A stretch of 64,000 nt of DNA, from NCBI GenBank assembly GCA_023229825.1, contig JALNYN010000001.1, forward strand, positions 14,422-78,421. The letters run 5' to 3'. Shown one piece after another: positions 5,078 through 62,835 of this stretch (positions are counted from its first letter, which is position 1; each line of letters starts with the position of its first letter). The notes beneath the pieces were generated by a model. It was not told the DNA's origin. It saw only the letters and a list, made by a program, of their open reading frames with translations, and did no database searches. Both the position numbers and the translations under genes were made by a program. This DNA is from Minisyncoccota bacterium (GTDB lineage Bacteria > Patescibacteriota > Minisyncoccia > Phycocordibacterales > CAIJYI01).

Positions 5078-5123
5078 CCCCTAGGGCGGTCCTCGGGAGG
5101 TTTCCCGAGGACCGCCCTAGGGG
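5078..5123. repeat. REP1 perfect palindrome (CCCCTAGGGCGGTCCTCGGGA-GGTT-TCCCGAGGACCGCCCTAGGGG) upstream of the RAYT gene
   Basis: Same family at 5826-5873 and 14401-14449. Confidence 0.8.
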
Positions 5124-5138
5124 AAAACGGAGCAATCG

Positions 5139-5155
5139 TGTATAATGCTTGAATG
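5139..5155 (+). promoter_or_regulatory. extended -10 (TGTATAAT) 6 nt upstream of the ATG: candidate leaderless promoter for the RAYT gene
   Basis: tgtataatgcttgaATG; no SD possible. Confidence 0.45.
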
Positions 5156-5848
5156 GAACGAAAATTTAATTTTAGCGTTGATGAGTACTATCATATTTAT
5201 AGCCGTGGAGTTGAGAAGCGTGAAATTTTTCTTGATAATGGAGATAAAGAAAGATTTTTACGTTTATTGTTCTTATCTAACTCAGGCAAACCATTTAATT
5301 TTAGAGAAGTTTCCGGAATTTCTTTTGAAAATATTTCTCGAGGAGAACCACGAACAGCCATAGGAGCTTTTTGCCTTATGCCCAATCATTTTCATCTACT
5401 ATTACGAGAAACCGAGGAGGGCGGAATAAGTGCATTTATCGGAAAACTTCTCACTGGCTATTCAATGTATTTTAATAAAAAATACAAACGAAAGGGTGTA
5501 GTTTTTGAAAGCCGTTTTCAGGCTCAGCACGTCGATAACGACAATTACCTCAAATATCTCTTTGCTTATATCCATCTCAATCCGGTAAAACTCATCGAAC
5601 CGGAATGGAAAGAGAAGGGAATCAAAGATCAGAAATTTGCCGAAGACTATCTGAATAAATATCGCTACAGTAGCTATGAAGATCATATGGGCACAGAAAG
5701 AGAAGAAGCCCTTATCCTCGACAAAGAGTCTTTCCCAGAATATTTCGAAAGATCCCGTGATTTCAAAGACTATGTAACGGATTGGCTCAATTATCGCGAC
5801 GAAGAGGAAGGCGGTGGCGACACTGTTCCCGAGGGCGGTCCTCGGTAA
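5153..5848 (+). CDS. REP-associated tyrosine transposase (RAYT / IS200-like Y1 HUH transposase)
   Basis: HUH motif NHFHLLL and the Y..YIHLNPVK motif, matching E. coli RayT (HMHCIW; YIYINPVKHG); flanked by REP1 palindromes; paralog at 61945-62655. Confidence 0.85.
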   Translation: MERKFNFSVDEYYHIYSRGVEKREIFLDNGDKERFLRLLFLSNSGKPFNFREVSGISFENISRGEPRTAIGAFCLMPNHFHLLLRETEEGGISAFIGKLLTGYSMYFNKKYKRKGVVFESRFQAQHVDNDNYLKYLFAYIHLNPVKLIEPEWKEKGIKDQKFAEDYLNKYRYSSYEDHMGTEREEALILDKESFPEYFERSRDFKDYVTDWLNYRDEEEGGGDTVPEGGPR

Positions 5849-5873
5849 AATTACCGAGGACCGCCCTCGGGAA
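5826..5873. repeat. REP1 palindrome overlapping the RAYT stop codon (TTCCCGAGGGCGGTCCTCGG-TAAAATTA-CCGAGGACCGCCCTCGGGAA)
   Basis: Direct reading; encodes the C-terminal PEGGPR and the stop. Confidence 0.8.
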
Positions 5874-12715: not shown

Positions 12716-12895
12716 ATATCCGTCGCCGGACGGGGTGAGGAATGGGTAGGGACCCATTCCGTAAAACCTTCTTCTAATATTTTGTGAGGTACGAAACAAA
12801 ATATTGAAAAGGTGTACTGCTCCTGTAGGGAGGGTAACCCCGCTCCAAACGTTTCGGACTGGGGTACAACCCCAGTCCGGCGGACGACGGAGCAA
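12716..12895. repeat. Family-F repeat copy 2 (12716-12833) followed by a family-A unit (12834-12895)
   Basis: Near-identical to 822-967. Confidence 0.7.
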
Positions 12896-13617: not shown

Positions 13618-14388
13618 ATGTCCATAATAATAAAATCCCCCAAAGAAATAGAAATACTTCGCGAAGGCGGCAAGCGGCTGGCTCATGTGTTGGACGTGGT
13701 TGAAAAGGCGGTTCGACCCGGCGTGAGCACGAAAGATCTCGATAAAATTGCGTATGATACCGTTATCGAAATGGGCGATACTCCGGCGTTTCTGAATTAT
13801 CAACCTTATGGCGCGGATTTTCCGTATCCGGGAACGATCTGTCTTTCCGTGAACGATGAAATAGTGCACGGTCTTCCAAAACACGAACGAATTTTGCAGG
13901 AAGGGGATATCATCGGCCTCGACATGGGGATCATCCACGGCGGACTTATTACCGACAGCGCTCGCACGGTCGCGGTGGGGAAGATCAGTGAAAAAGCGCA
14001 GAAGCTCATGGATACGACGAAAAAAGCTCTTGAAGTGGGAATTTCAGCCATAAAGATCGGCGGACACGTGGGTGATGTCGGATATGCCATTGAACGATTC
14101 GTGAAGCCCTACAAATATGGCATTGTACGAGAGCTCGGAGGCCACGGCGTAGGCCGACAAGTCCACGAAGACCCATATATCCCCAATTTCGGCACAAAAA
14201 AGGGCGTAGGCGCGAAATGGAAGCCGGGAATGGTGGTCGCCATCGAGCCGATGTTGAACGAAGGGAAGCGCGGGATCGTTCTCGACCGAGATGGTTACAC
14301 ATATCGAACCGCCGACCGTTCACTCTCTGCTCACTTTGAACACACAATCGCCATCACAAAAGATGGGGTGGAAATACTTACGAAATAA
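13618..14388 (+). CDS. map: methionine aminopeptidase type I
   Basis: Conserved pita-bread fold motifs (DxxGxxxDxARTVAVG, HGxGxxxHE). Confidence 0.92.
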   Translation: MSIIIKSPKEIEILREGGKRLAHVLDVVEKAVRPGVSTKDLDKIAYDTVIEMGDTPAFLNYQPYGADFPYPGTICLSVNDEIVHGLPKHERILQEGDIIGLDMGIIHGGLITDSARTVAVGKISEKAQKLMDTTKKALEVGISAIKIGGHVGDVGYAIERFVKPYKYGIVRELGGHGVGRQVHEDPYIPNFGTKKGVGAKWKPGMVVAIEPMLNEGKRGIVLDRDGYTYRTADRSLSAHFEHTIAITKDGVEILTK

Positions 14389-14400
14389 CATTGAGCTATC

Positions 14401-14449
14401 GTCCCCTAGGGCGGTCCTCGGTATTTTGCCGAGGACCGCCCTAGGGGAC
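14401..14449. repeat. REP1 palindrome copy 3, followed by a T-run: doubles as the map terminator
   Basis: GTCCCCTAGGGCGGTCCTCGG-TATTTTG-CCGAGGACCGCCCTAGGGGAC then tttttg. Confidence 0.8.
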
Positions 14450-14504: not shown

Positions 14505-17261
14505 GAAGACCATTTTAAAATTTTGCCTCAGTTTAAGAATCCTGCTGAGGAGCTTACTTTTTTGCGTACTGCCGTTCGTGAACAGCAGGAAAAATTGGCG
14601 GAGCTTGGGGTGGAAACGACGCAGGAAAAACTGATCGGCGAAAATCTTGCGCAGTATAAAGCCATTCTGCCTTCGGAGGCTTTGGCTGAAGGGCATCGCA
14701 TGGAAGAAGGGGAAGTCGACGCGATCGTGCTTGATCTTGCTCCTGAAGCGCATGACTCCCAGATGGAAGAATTACTGGGTATTTTGCAGGAGCGGGGAAT
14801 AATGAATGCGCTTTCCGTCGTCGCAGGGCTTCACAATCCGCATATCGAAGACGATTTTCATCGCGTCCTCGTGCAATACATCAAGAGCGTTGAAGATAGC
14901 AGTTTGAAACAGCGTGGAACAGAGCGCCTTTTTGAAGAACTTCATATGACGCTGTACGAAGTTTCTCTGCCGTTGCCTGAAAAAGAAGACAAGAACAAAG
15001 CGCTCAAAGAACTTATCTCCGGAATGCAGCAATTCTATGCAGGCATGATCTCTGTCGATCTCGAGACCAGAAAACATGCGGACCGAAATTACTACTCTTT
15101 GGAGGTTGCGCTTCCGCACGACAGCGATGAGGTTTCTTTTCATGTGGCGGTTCCCGATACAAAAAAAGATCTTTTTGAAAAACAAGTCCTCGCCATATTT
15201 CCCGACGCGCACGTCATTGAAAACAAAAATGATTACAATATTTTCAATAACGATGGAATTTCCGTGGCAGCCTACGCCGTTCCCTCGGGAAATATCGTTT
15301 TTCCGCTCAAAACTTATGACGAATTCGATTATGATCCGCTCAATGTGGTCTTGAATGTCTTTTCAAAATTGCAGCGCCTTGGAGAGGGTGCTGCCATTCA
15401 GCTGCTCGTTTCTCCTGTCGGTGATGAATATAACGTGCAGTATAAATATGCGCTGAAAAAAATTAAAGAGGGCGTGAAAGTGAAAGATGCTACCGATTTT
15501 CCTAAAAATATTTTGGGAGAGGTGTGGCGCACCGGAAAAGATTTTTGGAAGATACAGATCACGGCTGAAGAAGAAAAAAAACGGCATGATAAAGAAAAAG
15601 AGCGTCTCGACGAGAATGTGGTAAAAATGATCGAAGAAAAGATGGCTCTGCCCATTCTCGATACGAATATCCGCGTAGTTGCATCGGCTTCGAGCCGCGA
15701 ACGCGCCACGCAGATCTTGCACGAGATCGAATCGGCTTTCCATCAATTTACCGACCCAAAAGGCAACGGAATGAAATGGAAAGAAATGAGCGGTGAGAAT
15801 CTTTCCCACATGCTTCACGATTTCAGCTACCGCTTGTTTGAGAACGATGCGAGTTTTCCTCTTAACCTTATGGAGCTGACGACCGTGATGCATTTTCCGG
15901 CAGGAAATGTCGCCATGCCACAGCTGAAAGAAGCAAGGGCGGGAATAGCGCCTGCACCGATAAATATCGGAGAAGAAGGCGTATTGCTTGGAATAAATGA
16001 TTACCGCGGTTCGGAGAAAGAGATCCATTTCGCCAAAGAAGATCGCGTCCGGCATTTCTATGTGATCGGACAGACCGGTACCGGTAAAACCGTTCTTTTG
16101 AAGAACATGATCGTTCAGGATATCCAGAACGGCTCCGGCGTCTGTATGATCGACCCTCACGGGACGGACATTGAAGATATTCTTGCGAATATTCCGCGCG
16201 AACGCATTGATGACGTGATCTATTTCGATCCGAGTTATATGGCGCGCCCGATGGGGCTCAACATGCTGGAATTCGATGAACGATTTCCGGAACAGAAGAC
16301 GTTTGTGGTCAACGAAATGCTCGCGATCTTCAACAAACTGTTCGACATGAAAGTCGCCGGAGGTCCCGCTTTCGAACAGTATTTCCGCAACTCCGCGCTG
16401 CTCGTTCTTGAGCATCCGGAATCCGGTTCTACACTTATGGAGATCGGCCGCGTGCTCGGCGACAAGGCGTTCCGCGAGTTAAAACTTTCTCATTGTAAAA
16501 ATCCGATCATTACGCAATTCTGGCATAATGCCGAAAGGACGACCGGAGAACAATCGCTGGCGAACTACGTGCCCTACATCACGAATAAATTCGACGTGTT
16601 CATTTCGAACGACATCATGCGGCCGATCATTGCGCAGGAAAAGTCTGCCTTCAATTTCCGCAAAGTGATGGATGAAAAGAAAATACTTCTCGTCAATCTT
16701 GCCAAGGGAAGGCTCGGCGATATCAATTCCAGTCTTCTCGGTCTTGTCATCGTCGGAAAAATTTTGATGGCTGCTCTTTCGCGCGTGGATGTCATGGGAA
16801 CCGGAAAAATGCCTCCCGATTTTTATTTGTACATCGACGAGTTCCAGAATGTGACGACCGATTCCATTTCCACGATCCTTTCCGAGGCGAGAAAGTATCG
16901 GCTTTCGCTCAACATTGCGCATCAATTCATTGCCCAGCTTCAGGATGAAATAAAGGATTCGGTATTCGGCAACGTCGGTTCCATGGCGGTCTTTCGCGTC
17001 GGTACCGAAGATGCGGAATTCCTGCAGAAACAATTTGATCCCGTCTTCACTCAAAGCGACATCATCAAGCTCGAGAACTACAACGCTTATATGAAAATGC
17101 TGATCGGCGGCCAGCCCGGCAAGCCTTTTAATATTAAGACGGTCGCTCCGAACAAGGGAAATAGAGAAATGGTCCCGCTCATCAAGGAATTGTCGTATTT
17201 GAAATTCGGAAGGGATAGGGCGCAGATCGAGGCGGAAATCTTGGCTAAGTATAAGCGATAG
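14502..17261 (+). CDS. VirD4/TraD/TraG-like (type IV coupling protein-like) or FtsK/HerA-superfamily P-loop ATPase with an ~480-aa unique N-terminal region
   Basis: Walker A VIGQTGTGKTV, Walker B LYIDEFQNV, AAA_10/TrwB-like C-terminal half; alternative start 14457. Confidence 0.65.
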   Translation: MEDHFKILPQFKNPAEELTFLRTAVREQQEKLAELGVETTQEKLIGENLAQYKAILPSEALAEGHRMEEGEVDAIVLDLAPEAHDSQMEELLGILQERGIMNALSVVAGLHNPHIEDDFHRVLVQYIKSVEDSSLKQRGTERLFEELHMTLYEVSLPLPEKEDKNKALKELISGMQQFYAGMISVDLETRKHADRNYYSLEVALPHDSDEVSFHVAVPDTKKDLFEKQVLAIFPDAHVIENKNDYNIFNNDGISVAAYAVPSGNIVFPLKTYDEFDYDPLNVVLNVFSKLQRLGEGAAIQLLVSPVGDEYNVQYKYALKKIKEGVKVKDATDFPKNILGEVWRTGKDFWKIQITAEEEKKRHDKEKERLDENVVKMIEEKMALPILDTNIRVVASASSRERATQILHEIESAFHQFTDPKGNGMKWKEMSGENLSHMLHDFSYRLFENDASFPLNLMELTTVMHFPAGNVAMPQLKEARAGIAPAPINIGEEGVLLGINDYRGSEKEIHFAKEDRVRHFYVIGQTGTGKTVLLKNMIVQDIQNGSGVCMIDPHGTDIEDILANIPRERIDDVIYFDPSYMARPMGLNMLEFDERFPEQKTFVVNEMLAIFNKLFDMKVAGGPAFEQYFRNSALLVLEHPESGSTLMEIGRVLGDKAFRELKLSHCKNPIITQFWHNAERTTGEQSLANYVPYITNKFDVFISNDIMRPIIAQEKSAFNFRKVMDEKKILLVNLAKGRLGDINSSLLGLVIVGKILMAALSRVDVMGTGKMPPDFYLYIDEFQNVTTDSISTILSEARKYRLSLNIAHQFIAQLQDEIKDSVFGNVGSMAVFRVGTEDAEFLQKQFDPVFTQSDIIKLENYNAYMKMLIGGQPGKPFNIKTVAPNKGNREMVPLIKELSYLKFGRDRAQIEAEILAKYKR

Positions 17262-26429: not shown

Positions 26430-27866
26430 ATGAAAATAACGCATGACAAAACGATGCAAAAAGGCGGAGCAGACATCGCTCTTTTGGTCGCTTTTTGTCT
26501 GTTTTTTCTTTCTGCGCTCGGGTCATTCATCTATTTTTCGCTTTTCGGCGATCCTCCGATAAATGGAGACAAGATACTGGAGCAAACAATGACGGCATCT
26601 TCCGCGGTAAAATCGTACACGGCAGAGATTTTTATTCAGAACGAAGGCGTTGCTTCTTCGAGCGCGGTAGTAAATGGAACGGTCAGAGTCGATACCGCCA
26701 CGGGGGCTCACAATGGTTTATTTTCCTTTTCTCTCTCGCGTAATAATACTAATCCGAGACTGGAAGTGGAAACGCTAACGTTTCCCGAAGCATCGTACGC
26801 GAAGTTCATCCTGAATGACAAGATGAATAAAAGTCTTGCGGCGTATCCGCCGGACTGGGTAATAATAACGGCTTCTGAGGTCGGTCCGGAACAATATGCC
26901 GTTTTACAGCGATCGCTCGCAGTTGCAGATGTTCTTGAGTTGTTTCGAAAAGGCGGCAAATATCTCGCTATAGAGGGAACAGCCGAAAAACAGATCGGCG
27001 GAGTCGAACCGCAAATACATTTTGTCCTTCGTCCCTCAAAGATCGAATCAGATCGTCCTTCGGAAGTATCTGAAAATTTTGATACGCTCCTTCGGAAAGG
27101 CGAGGTTAATGTGTGGGTCGCCGCAAAGGATAAGAGCGTGCGCGAGGTGAGATATTCCGTCAATGGTTATTCGATAACCATGAGGATAAAAAATACATCC
27201 GCGCGCCCAAATATTGAGAGGCCGGAAGGTTCGATCACTCTCACTGAATGGAAGACAAAACAGTTTTCCGCATTCGCCCTGAAAGACCCCATATCGGAAA
27301 TTTTTATCGGCTCCTACGGCGCCATAAAAAAAGAATATCTGGAAGCGCTCAGTTCCGCGATAAAAAAACAAACGGGGATCAAAGCAACGGTTCTGATCCC
27401 GGGGTCGGAACTTCCGCAGACAATGCCGCTGTATAACGCGGAACGAAAGCAGTTCGATGCGGATACCGCTTATAACAGTGCGAAAGCGGCATCGCAGAAA
27501 TATGGGGCAAAAACGCGCTTCATTTATGTGTTGGACGTAAATATGTATTCTTCATTGCGGCCAAAACAGGTATCAGCATGGTTCATCGATGAATTGGGGT
27601 CGAATACGGTGCTCATGTCACTGTACGGACTTCGCAGAATATCCGACACGGATCCGAGTCCAGCCGATCAACCGCTCGTTATTTCGCGGGCTCAAAAGAT
27701 CGCTCTTCACGCTCTCGGAACGAGCGTCGGTTTCGGCCTCTCGCCATCAACCGAAAACCCGACCTGTCTTTCATATAAGACGGATTCTCTCGCGGAACTC
27801 GATAAGCAAGGAACCGCGTACTGCGCACCGGAGAGTTCGACCACTAAAGCGTTCTTCAAAAAATAG
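26430..27866 (+). CDS. hypothetical membrane-anchored protein (N-terminal TM, large extracytoplasmic domain)
   Basis: 478-aa ORF, coding-like composition, no recognised motif. Confidence 0.6.
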   Translation: MKITHDKTMQKGGADIALLVAFCLFFLSALGSFIYFSLFGDPPINGDKILEQTMTASSAVKSYTAEIFIQNEGVASSSAVVNGTVRVDTATGAHNGLFSFSLSRNNTNPRLEVETLTFPEASYAKFILNDKMNKSLAAYPPDWVIITASEVGPEQYAVLQRSLAVADVLELFRKGGKYLAIEGTAEKQIGGVEPQIHFVLRPSKIESDRPSEVSENFDTLLRKGEVNVWVAAKDKSVREVRYSVNGYSITMRIKNTSARPNIERPEGSITLTEWKTKQFSAFALKDPISEIFIGSYGAIKKEYLEALSSAIKKQTGIKATVLIPGSELPQTMPLYNAERKQFDADTAYNSAKAASQKYGAKTRFIYVLDVNMYSSLRPKQVSAWFIDELGSNTVLMSLYGLRRISDTDPSPADQPLVISRAQKIALHALGTSVGFGLSPSTENPTCLSYKTDSLAELDKQGTAYCAPESSTTKAFFKK

Positions 27867-27950
27867 ATACTAATATACGAATGAGTACCAATATACGAAT
27901 GGATACGAATACGACCGGCAACGAAGAAGAGATGGAACATTGCTCGGATC

Positions 27951-36214: not shown

Positions 36215-36243
36215 GTTTTTATTTTCTTAGCTTATAAGTATTA

Positions 36244-36283
36244 TACTCCGCAAATTCTAGCATATGCTAGAATTTGCGGAGTA
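36244..36283. promoter_or_regulatory. perfect 40-bp palindrome in the divergent promoter region (candidate operator)
   Basis: TACTCCGCAAATTCTAGCAT|ATGCTAGAATTTGCGGAGTA. Confidence 0.5.
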
Positions 36284-36477
36284 ATATATTTTATACGTAA
36301 AAAATATATTACATTGTTAATATAGCACTTCTGCAGAAAGATGCAAGCGGTCATGTCGACAATATAGAAAAGTGGATAGATCAGCATTCTTTTTCTGGAT
36401 ACTTGACTCTTTGTATATAGTGTAGTACTATAAAATTGGTACTTGAATTTTTTACATATACAATATAGGAGGAAAGT

Positions 36478-39097: not shown

Positions 39098-39143
39098 TTT
39101 TCTACAAGGTTAGTCCTTGTACAAGGACTAACCTTGTAGAAAA
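39098..39143. promoter_or_regulatory. perfect 46-bp palindrome upstream of ald
   Basis: TTTCTACAAGGTTAGTCCTTGT|ACAAGGACTAACCTTGTAGAAA. Confidence 0.5.
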
Positions 39144-54007: not shown

Positions 54008-54073
54008 CATCTCCACAAATCTAAAAAACAGTCCGCTTGTTGGCGGACTGTTTTTTAGATTTGTGGAGATGGG
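54008..54073. terminator. long inverted repeat / bidirectional terminator abutting the tmRNA 3' end (a 29-bp stem that includes an inverted copy of the tmRNA 3'-terminal 15 nt)
   Basis: CATCTCCACAAATCTAAAAAACAGTCCGC-TTGTT-GGCGGACTGTTTTTTAGATTTGTGGAGATG. Confidence 0.6.
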
Positions 54074-54449
54074 GGGAATTGAACCCCCGTGCAAAAAGGA
54101 ACTCTTGGTGCCGGTACAAACATAGTTTATTTTTTTTGGTTTAAACCTTATAAGTTTGAAATAAACAAAATCTTATAAGCGTCGAGCTTCCTTTGTTTTG
54201 AAAATGTGCCGAAGCGCTCACATTTTCTATCCTGATGATATTACACCTTTTCTTTCTTATCAGGACTCAAAAAGAAAAGATGCCGTTTACGCTAAAGCGT
54301 AGCTCGGAGCGAAGTACGGAGATAAGACCGCACCTGCTTTTTTAGATAAGTTTGCACTTATGCAGTTTCTCGCGCATTTTAACGGGTGAGCGAGAATATC
54401 CGGTTTGAGCATTCAAGAGAGCGGCTTATTGTCTAGGCCGATCATCCCC
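54062..54449 (-). ncRNA. ssrA: tmRNA (ssrA)
   Basis: 5' GGGGAUG pairs with 3' CAUCUCC, including a G3:U70 wobble; T-arm GGGGGTTCAATTCCCCC; tag ORF ending ...YALA-TAA (stop at 54287-54289); adjacent to smpB. Confidence 0.7.
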
Positions 54450-61897: not shown

Positions 61898-61913
61898 GAA
61901 GGACGGTCCTTGG
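61898..61913. repeat. REP2 palindrome (GAAGGACGGTCCTTGG) upstream of RAYT2; further copies at 62110-62130 (inside the ORF) and 62661-62682 (downstream)
   Basis: Core CGGTCCT shared with REP1 (GGGCGGTCCTCGG). Confidence 0.65.
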
Positions 61914-61944
61914 TTTATATTTTAGGCATGGTATACTCATATTT

Positions 61945-62655
61945 ATGAAACGCCATTTTGCCTTTGCTCCCGATGAATATTATCACGTTTACAACAGAGG
62001 GACGGAAAGACGTGTTATTTTTGAAGATGATCATGATTATAAAAGATTTCTCGTACTTTTATACCTAAGCAACGGCACCGCTGCGATTGACCTAAACGAA
62101 TATTTTTCTCAGGAAGGACGGTCCTTCCTTGAACTCTTTAGGGCTAACCGCGGGTCGCAAATTGTGGATGTGGGATCGTATTGCCTTATGCCTAATCATT
62201 TTCATTTACTGCTTCGAGAAAAAGTAGACGGAGGCGTCAGTACTTTTATGAAAAAACTTGGGACAGCTTATTCCACATATTTTAATAAAAAAAATACGCG
62301 GGTCGGACCGTTGTTCCAAGGTCGCTTTAAAGCGCAGCATGTTGATATTGACAATTATTTAAAATATCTGTTTTCATATATTCATTTGAACCCTGTAAAA
62401 CTCATTGATCCAAAATGGAAGGAGAAGGGGATTTTTGACATGAAAAAGACTAAAGAATATTTGAACGAATACCCATACTCAAGTTATCAGAACTTTCTCG
62501 GGAGGAAACAAATTGAAAAGGTGATACTAACCAGAAACCGCTTTCCTGAATACTTTAAAACAACGCATGACTTTGAAGAGTTTATAAATGATTGGCTGAC
62601 GTTTGACGATGAGTTTGATGTCCGTAGACCGTCAGGAAAGAGAAAAAGACTGTAA
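61945..62655 (+). CDS. REP-associated tyrosine transposase (RAYT), paralog 2
   Basis: CLMPNHFHLLLRE and YLFSYIHLNPVKL; flanked by REP2 palindromes; one REP2 copy lies in-frame within the ORF (encodes QEGRSFLE). Confidence 0.85.
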   Translation: MKRHFAFAPDEYYHVYNRGTERRVIFEDDHDYKRFLVLLYLSNGTAAIDLNEYFSQEGRSFLELFRANRGSQIVDVGSYCLMPNHFHLLLREKVDGGVSTFMKKLGTAYSTYFNKKNTRVGPLFQGRFKAQHVDIDNYLKYLFSYIHLNPVKLIDPKWKEKGIFDMKKTKEYLNEYPYSSYQNFLGRKQIEKVILTRNRFPEYFKTTHDFEEFINDWLTFDDEFDVRRPSGKRKRL

Positions 62656-62835
62656 AATGACAAGGAAGGACCGTCCTTCCTGTAAAAGTTTGACAATACC
62701 TATTTGTTTGTTAGTATCAAAACCAGATTGCTGTGATGGTTGCGGATAGTTCGCAACCGTTTGAACAGCAACGGGAACCTTGTAAAACCCGCCGTCGCTC
62801 TCGACGAGCTATGGCGAGGCAAAGGAGAAACTGTC

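Follow-up and report, generated by a model that had tools for sequence, protein, structure and literature searches.

The stretch analysed here, called the window throughout, is 64,000 nucleotides long (assembly GCA_023229825.1, contig JALNYN010000001.1, positions 14,422 to 78,421 of the forward strand) and comes from a bacterium of the Candidate Phyla Radiation (CPR). It carries a gene, RAYT1, which resembles those of the REP-associated tyrosine transposases (RAYTs, where REP stands for repetitive extragenic palindromic) and is bracketed by perfect palindromes of a family that we term REP1. The initial annotation had described an open reading frame with HUH and Y..YIHLNPVK motifs, a palindrome about 30 bp upstream of it, another over its stop codon, and a third copy with a T-run after map. 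This observation is confirmed, and the elements sit at the following positions:

RAYT1, 5153..5848, + strand: 231-aa HUH/Y1 nuclease; the HUH residues are H79-F-H81, the catalytic tyrosine is Y139 (within YIHLNP), a serine pair lies at S173-S174, and the C-terminal extension is helical
P1, 5076-5125, no strand: REP1 doublet with 23-nt arms and a 4-nt loop, 100% complementary, ending 27 nt upstream of the RAYT1 ATG
P2, 5825-5874, no strand: REP1 doublet with 24-nt arms and a 2-nt loop, 100% complementary, spanning the RAYT1 stop codon
P3, 14401..14454, + strand: REP1 doublet followed by a T-run; palindrome at 14401-14449 with 21-nt arms and a 7-nt loop, 100% complementary

The RAYT1 translation includes NHFHLLL (the HUH motif) and YLKYLFAYIHLNPVK, and its last seven residues (VPEGGPR) are specified by REP1, the left arm of P2 encoding them together with the TAA stop codon (5846-5848). 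Scored against the Pfam profile Y1_Tnp (PF01797, 'Transposase IS200 like' in Pfam), as the initial annotation had proposed, RAYT1 reaches 35.2 bits for a cutoff of 23, so that it falls in a transposase family and above threshold. The catalytic tyrosine, for which a conservation check had also been suggested, is invariant in the 25 aligned homologs, as are H79, H81, Y135, H141, N143, P144, S173 and S174. An AlphaFold2 model of the protein (predicted local distance difference test score, pLDDT, 88) has as its top PDB fold match 4ER8_A, the REP-hairpin-bound E. coli RAYT (E 1.6e-6, target template-modelling score 0.67), followed by the TnpA proteins of IS200/IS605 as second-best matches (E ~1e-3). 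The link to RAYT comes from this fold comparison only, as a PDB sequence search with RAYT1 alone or with a 25-sequence profile gave zero matches; in an alignment with E. coli RayT, the HUH motif and YI.xNPVK fall on their counterparts there (HMH motif, Y115).

The tyrosine motif of RAYT1 is of the Y...NP type (YIHLNP) and not the Y...Q of IS200, which places the protein in class 2 of the TnpA-Y1 enzymes (PMC6006769). Subclass 2.1 has the signature NH[YF]H / FQ / Y[IV]HLNP, two serines after the tyrosine helix, a median length of 238 aa and a conserved C-terminal extension (PMC6006769). The corresponding features here, compared with Table 1 of that work, are NHFH, FE in RAYT1 (FQ in its homologs and in RAYT2, a paralog described below), YIHLNP, YSSY, and lengths of 231 and 236 aa. 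From inspection of these published motifs alone, RAYT1 appears to fit subclass 2.1, equivalent to Bertels Group 1, rather than the canonical REP-associated subclasses; subclass 2.1 is probably the 'TIRYT' of Di Nocera. A Pfam scan detected no helix-turn-helix or DnaA-like domain in the C-terminus, PHROGs and PADLOC gave zero matches, and a tblastn search of plasmids gave at best ≤39% identity, to genes annotated 'transposase'. The database record of the identical protein is likewise a 'transposase', from a Candidatus Pacebacteria metagenome-assembled genome, with further copies in one ENA and one JGI assembly. RAYT1 has more than 6,600 homologs, the best 120 of which span 56-80% identity, the exact match aside; the few named sources among these 120 are all Parcubacteria/Paceibacterota or unclassified bacteria.

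The three palindromes in the window share the core GGGCGGTCCTCGG/CCGAGGACCGCCC. The 13-mer GGGCGGTCCTCGG has six exact matches in the window, and eight when up to two mismatches are allowed, against 0.85 expected; a count of eight is attained by none of 100 shuffles. Folded as single strands of DNA, the three elements reach −30 to −33 kcal/mol (z = −10 to −13; P1 alone −33.4 kcal/mol, z −10.0; P2 alone −32.5 kcal/mol, z −12.8). Each arm is itself a 17-nt mini-hairpin, CC(G/T)AGG-GCGGT-CCTCGG (CCTAGG-GCGGT-CCTCGG in P1), of the general form NNNAGG-NNNGT-CCTNNN, so that the palindrome of 46-50 nt amounts to an inverted doublet of small hairpins, built as REPINs are from pairs of REPs. The six REP1 copies known, three in the window and three outside it, vary in the loop, the outer stem and one inner position (T/A or G/C), and self-complementarity is perfect in all of them despite this variation. 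No Rfam family matches any of the palindromes.

P3 begins 12 nt beyond the map stop codon (14386-14388) and is followed by TTTTTGTTTG, a TTTTTG run. Two independent assemblies (Logan SRR6484324 and SRR18595301) reproduce the palindrome and its flanks without a difference, which excludes an assembly artefact. That P3 may serve as the terminator of map is suggested by a match to the consensus; it is the top terminator-like site between 4900 and 15000, but such sites are no commoner there than in shuffled sequence.

The repeats could in principle be G+C-rich palindromes arising by chance or in assembly, with no connection to the gene, and a looser 22-nt hairpin pattern does occur once each in many high-G+C genomes. 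However, the core enrichment in the window, the identity of the sequences in three to four independent assemblies and the recurrence of the layout, with different sequences, in seven other loci refute this explanation, to which we attach a negligible probability. The 22-nt pattern had been used to scan a genome collection that does not hold the source genome. The 87 stretches recovered were in essence isolated chance hairpins of high-G+C genomes, and the sole match in Patescibacteria (L031) has unrelated flanks; these candidates were discarded.

Beyond what the initial annotation had described, the window contains a second gene of this type with a hairpin of its own, and a further doublet of REP1 architecture:

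RAYT2, 61945..62655, + strand: paralog with 54% identity to RAYT1, 236 aa in length, in which the HUH and YIHLNP motifs recur
REP2 hairpin, upstream, 61898..61913, + strand: GAAGGACGGTCCTTGG, 31 nt before the RAYT2 ATG
REP2 hairpin, intragenic, 62111..62129, + strand: in frame in RAYT2, encoding QEGRSFL in a variable loop before the HUH motif, −6.7 kcal/mol
REP2 hairpin, downstream, 62663..62681, − strand: 7 nt past the RAYT2 stop codon, −7.0 kcal/mol, z −4.1
REP3-like perfect doublet, 39098..39143, no strand: unit ACAAGG-TTAGT-CCTTGT, 23-nt arms, −21.4 kcal/mol, z −9.5

RAYT2 scores 35.5 bits with Y1_Tnp (cutoff 23) and has a TATACT box upstream, at 61932-61937. The REP2 sequence, AAGGAC[G/C]GTCCTT, has three matches in the window where 0.06 are expected, and the centre base of the downstream copy is inverted relative to the upstream one (ACCGT and ACGGT), which gives the two copies opposite orientations. 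The REP3-like doublet is intergenic and adjoins an ordinary terminator hairpin, with no cognate gene within the window. Two paralogs thus occur in one window, each with a different hairpin (RAYT1 with REP1, RAYT2 with REP2), and two RAYT-like paralogs per genome may be common in the group. Two different RAYT-like proteins, P0012 (whose contig is L106) and P0015, and the arginyl-tRNA synthetase ArgS P0249 are each listed with a longest JGI contig of 94,431 bp.

Hairpins lie on both flanks of the gene in eight of eight loci, namely RAYT1 and RAYT2 of the window and six loci of relatives (L094, L095, L097, L098, L099 and L106). In the relatives the repeats often overlap the stop codon of the RAYT-like gene, and in L106 the GTAG of the hairpin provides the TAG stop itself. 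The repeat units are the following:

L094, L099 and L106: CACAGG-GTAGT-CCTGTG
L095: ACAAGG-GGAGT-CCTTGT
L098: CCAAGG-GGAGT / ACAGT-CCTTGG
L097: a single palindrome, CCAAGGGG(T/A)CCCCTTGG

Together with the Y1_Tnp score and the 4ER8 fold match, the recurrence of this layout in the six relative loci bears out the original description of a RAYT-type gene with its own palindromes. Across nine distinct doublet types, 9 of the 17 arm positions keep their pairing through at least two types of Watson-Crick pair, with two unpaired cells in total, and the core AGG-NNN-GT-CCT is invariant. The proteins that share the GTAG hairpin (L094, L099 and L106) are mutual closest relatives, at 79-80% identity. The 5' tetranucleotides of the window, GCGG in REP1, ACGG in REP2 and TTAG in REP3, depart from the canonical GT[AG]G; those of the relatives are GTAG in L094, L099 and L106 and GGAG in L095 and L098.

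Upstream of the gene the spacing is also regular. In four loci the proximal unit begins 48-49 nt ahead of the start codon. A TATAAT box precedes the ATG by 6-8 nt in the window, L094, L095, L097 and L106, five of the seven RAYT1-type loci, so that the hairpin falls over the −35 position. In the window this putative −10 element is at 5141..5146 (+ strand), 6 nt before the RAYT1 ATG, and the right arm of P1 overlies the expected −35 position; a two-hexamer promoter scan does not call the element. The arrangement hints that a short-leader promoter of the RAYT-like gene may be controlled by the hairpin.

The order recA, ftsK, a gene for a large protein and the RAYT-like gene is common to the window (L001), L106 (76% protein identity) and L097 (58%), and between the window and L106 the upstream spacer aligns well on either side of the hairpin, the hairpin itself differing. 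As judged from these comparisons, the chromosomal position of RAYT1 is conserved and the gene is not mobile. This bears on whether RAYT1 and its flanking hairpins make up an autonomous insertion sequence of the IS200/IS605 type, with the hairpins as its ends and the dispersed copies as solo ends or miniature derivatives. The Pfam family name, the TnpA structures second among the fold matches, and the subterminal hairpins at both ends that are typical of that family all speak for such an element. However, the tyrosine motif is Y...NP and not Y...Q (PMC6006769, Table 1), copy number is low with no identical copies of the gene (the paralogs being only 54% identical), the same chromosomal context is kept where the proteins are only 58-77% identical, no tnpB adjoins the gene, and palindromic doublets on both sides replace the distinct left and right ends. 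We therefore reject an autonomous insertion sequence as very improbable.

REP1 copies also occur inside genes, which the initial annotation had not described. Among 241 million metagenome records, a 28-nt REP1 pattern was present in only four contigs, and these come from a single metagenome, which also contains the sequence of the window. One contig is the RAYT1 locus; the other three add copies beyond the window, the absence of which would have counted against the initial annotation, each with REP1 in frame within a conserved gene:

lepA copy: encoded peptide VPEGGPRESIPRTALGD
argS copy: encoded peptide SPRAVLGESPRTALGE
queA copy: encoded peptide SPRGRSSGSLPRTALGG

Compared with solved homologs, these peptides are additional residues in a linker or variable region. 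Read in the frame of lepA and RAYT1, the TAG-containing REP1 variant would give a stop codon, and both genes have the GAG variant, with compensation in the other arm; P2 is the CGAGG variant, its other arm carrying the compensatory change. In each of the three gene-internal copies the reading frame yields PRTALG from the second arm, and this common frame was considered as a signal of selection. We dropped the argument because such agreement arises by accident about once in nine cases and the orthologs use other frames.

The lepA and argS sites were then compared among orthologs; a joint search with QueA and ArgS gave only relatives of ArgS among its best 120 matches. LepA orthologs of 81-93% identity all have a hypervariable segment at the REP1 site, 5-18 residues longer than in the shortest orthologs and with strongly conserved flanks, whereas most orthologs at about 70% identity do not have it. 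At this single lepA site, in LepA proteins that are 88-93% identical, we found palindromes of four kinds, two of them perfect and two mismatched, with the following arms:

this genome: GTCCCCGAGGGCGGTCCTCGGGA
L103: CCCGAGGGCAGTCCTCGGGAAG
L104: CACCAAGGGGAGTCCTTGGGAA, one mismatch
L105: AAGGACGGTCCTTCGGA

Other LepA orthologs, P0139-P0147 among them, have decayed remnants at the site. At the argS site the palindrome-derived peptides also vary among genomes, and the peptide of ArgS P0249, HRVVLCTQDYPVY, corresponds residue for residue to a translation of the hairpin beside the RAYT-like gene of L106. ArgS P0249 is listed with a JGI contig of 94,431 bp, the length of L106, so that the two genes are probably on one contig. 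The peptide RAVLADGTARTAL is common to ArgS P0244 and LepA P0129. Because vertical decay yields no perfect palindromes that match the hairpin beside the RAYT-like gene of the same genome, the sequence differences at these sites would be explained more economically by in-situ replacement or by homogenisation of the hairpins; repeated re-insertion at a hot spot may also have produced them. The further statement that the system may be active or recently active finds indirect support in the identical cores and in the hairpin turnover at orthologous sites. Very long palindromes (37-49-nt arms) also lie directly 3' of lepA in L103 (2176-2253) and L104 (11851-11952), and their arms end GCAGTAG/CTAC, a GTAG-type centre.

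The copies inside genes also help to judge whether the hairpins are structural or regulatory elements of the host, such as terminators, mRNA stabilisers or operators, kept by selection, recombination or gene conversion, with a RAYT-like protein that only binds them for autoregulation or for another task on single-stranded DNA. Several features would suit such elements: P3 resembles an intrinsic terminator, an ordinary terminator hairpin occupies the equivalent place after map in relatives (L094, 4287-4320), the upstream doublet keeps a fixed distance over the −35 position, and the copies are few, most of the known sites being orthologous across genomes and not new. Yet the catalytic residues are all invariant in hundreds of homologs, which would not be expected of a mere binder. 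Terminator or operator roles leave unexplained the palindromes in lepA, argS and queA, where the peptide is hypervariable and the symmetry of the DNA is kept, and gene conversion alone fails to explain how both arms and all copies shift jointly with those that flank the gene. For these reasons we regard a purely host-serving origin of the hairpins as unlikely.

We consider it likely, instead, that the window holds a system of the REP-RAYT type in a CPR (Paceibacteria) genome, with enzymes matched to their own hairpins. RAYT1 and RAYT2 would be chromosomal, vertically inherited HUH/Y1 nucleases acting on single-stranded DNA, each recognising its own hairpin with a stem of 6-8 bp, a centre of 3-5 nt and the core AGG-NNN-GT-CCT. 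REP1 doublets would bracket RAYT1, one over the −35 of its putative promoter and one over the stop codon, with others after map and in lepA, argS and queA. On the model of E. coli TnpA-REP and IS608 biochemistry (cited in PMC6006769), the hairpin would form on single-stranded DNA and be bound by the enzyme, Tyr139 and the metal held by the HUH motif would cut beside it, and the strands would then be rejoined. Such cutting and rejoining could copy hairpins to new sites, while exchange of hairpins at occupied sites could keep a small population, largely at fixed sites, matched to the current specificity of the enzyme. Binding, cleavage, and copying or replacement of the hairpin by RAYT1 are attributed by this analogy, and we infer its catalysis and mobility, as well as the terminator function of P3, on the same footing. 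The copies that flank the gene probably also regulate RAYT1 and P3 probably also terminates transcription of map; autoregulation by P1 and termination by P3 are plausible by-products of the system.

A more specific possibility, which we hold to be doubtful though worth stating, is that RAYT-like enzymes of Paceibacteria mainly maintain a few specificity-matched hairpins at fixed sites, including those in frame in lepA and argS, through excision and replacement in place and not through scattering. If so, enzyme and hairpin would co-evolve over the long term as a vertically inherited pair, and subclass 2.1/Group 1, the largest RAYT group and the one least understood, would after all have cognate hairpin substrates.

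Several observations weigh against a REP-RAYT system. RAYT1 and RAYT2 score 42 and 43.6 bits with the NCBIfam equivalog NF047646 (REP_Tyr_transpos), below its cutoff of 80, while E. coli RayT, run as a control, reaches 179 bits; and subclass 2.1 has been reported to have no REP-like sequences nearby (PMC6006769). The known REP1 copies number six distinct ones, with a single non-flanking copy in 64 kb, where classical systems have tens to hundreds. We infer that the lepA, argS and queA contigs come from the genome of the window because they share its metagenome, the unique 28-nt pattern, a similar G+C content and two minor repeats. The upstream layout is not uniform, L098 having only TAAGAT, L099 being without a TATAAT box and its upstream doublet lying nearer to the ATG (−30). 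Finally, the different hairpins at one site could stem from repeated independent insertion or from host recombination that does not involve the enzyme.

Other repeats and genes were noted in the window and in related sequences. A 124-nt direct repeat, 93% identical between its copies at 840-963 and 12733-12856, is intergenic in both places, the second directly upstream of adk; it holds a GGAATGGG..CCCATTCC hairpin and an AGGAGGG end, has no Rfam match and may represent a leader common to both places or a small RNA. A 35-nt repeat containing the palindrome CGAAACGTTTCG has three copies (28-62, 468-502 and 934-968). A family of palindromes centred on GCAT/ATGC is found in the window (36223-36304), L092 (1120-1175) and L105 (13693-13748). 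The window shares the core CCGCAAATTCTAGCAT/ATGCTAGAATTTGCGG with a contig from its metagenome, and a related genome has an element of similar shape. Short repeats based on ACCAATATACGAAT occur in the window (27860-27925), in the lepA contig L090 (575-640) and in the related genome L104 (15533-15620). The tmRNA gene (54061-54449, minus strand, 119.5 bits) has a perfect palindrome with 29-nt arms at its 3' end (54008-54071). In L106 a gene with a rolling-circle Rep domain (15720-16736, PF23343 REP_ORF2-G2P) and, farther downstream, a gene for an Mrr-like restriction protein lie 5-9 kb from the RAYT-like gene, and this region may be an integrated element.

To our knowledge, REP-RAYT systems have been characterised almost solely in Proteobacteria. 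A literature search for RAYT, REP or REPIN together with CPR or Patescibacteria found no paper linking them, which does not disprove that one exists. By its motifs RAYT1 belongs to the largest RAYT group, previously without a known hairpin partner, and its short 17-nt putative substrates, with two paralog-hairpin pairs in one genome, offer a built-in test of specificity. Lineage-matched palindromes at the same sites of essential genes are unusual, and are difficult to account for unless hairpins are actively homogenised or replaced. Peptides derived from such repeats make up part of the numerous insertions in CPR proteins that have lacked an explanation, which bears on annotation, alignment and phylogeny.

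The window system is a real, low-copy variant of REP-RAYT in a CPR bacterium. With the REP-RAYT systems of E. coli and Pseudomonas (REPtrons and REPINs; TnpA-Y1 subclasses 2.2 and 2.5, Bertels Groups 2 and 3) it shares a single-copy, vertically inherited HUH/Y1 gene with Y...NP, bracketed, as in a REPtron, by the same palindromic repeat that is dispersed elsewhere. Also shared are inverted doublets that form long hairpins, a repeat family for each paralog (PMC5581495, PMC6006769), repeats just 3' of genes, and 4ER8 as the top fold match. In contrast to E. coli RayT, with which it has only about 14% structure-based identity (26% in the motif region), RAYT1 has F in place of the conserved W of the WQ/WE motif and continues at its C-terminus into an additional domain of about 80 aa. 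The 17-nt unit, the perfectly palindromic doublets, the CPR host and the handful of known copies, against tens to hundreds, also differ from those systems, as does GCGG in place of the canonical GTAG, the latter being present in L094, L099 and L106.

From subclass 2.1 as published, the present loci differ in that hairpin repeats flank the gene on both sides in eight of eight cases and REP1 recurs elsewhere. Some TIRtrons have self-complementary ('double palindromic') flanking repeats, fixed distances to the gene and modest repeat families (Di Nocera 2013, PMC3733652; Quentin 2018, PMC6006769), but the consensus of the terminal inverted repeats (TIRs), GGGGWSAS, is unmatched here, where GGG[GCT][AG]GTCC is found.

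Rickettsia palindromic elements (RPEs), which Ogata reportedly described in 2000, are said to be in-frame palindromes in conserved genes of a reduced genome. Like RPEs and intragenic REPs (PMC3733652), the palindromes in lepA, argS and queA add 10-30 residues in loops or linkers, and as with intragenic REPs the repeat can provide a stop codon (the TAG of L106). The likeness to RPEs is one of behaviour and not of sequence membership: the elements described here are shorter (46-51 nt), are tied to a cognate Y1 gene flanked by the same repeat, and one site bears different, lineage-matched palindromes in related genomes. With the TnpA proteins of the IS200/IS605 group (IS608, ISDra2) RAYT1 shares the HUH/Y1 fold, and the systems have hairpin recognition and a single-strand DNA mechanism in common, the latter two being attributed to RAYT1 by analogy. 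No feature is new singly, since intragenic REPs, RPEs, double-foot REPs and self-complementary terminal inverted repeats are all documented (PMC3733652, PMC6006769). What sets the system apart from known REP-RAYT systems is its host phylum, protein subclass, 17-nt unit, GCGG tetranucleotide, perfect doublets, very low known copy number and lineage-matched intragenic copies.

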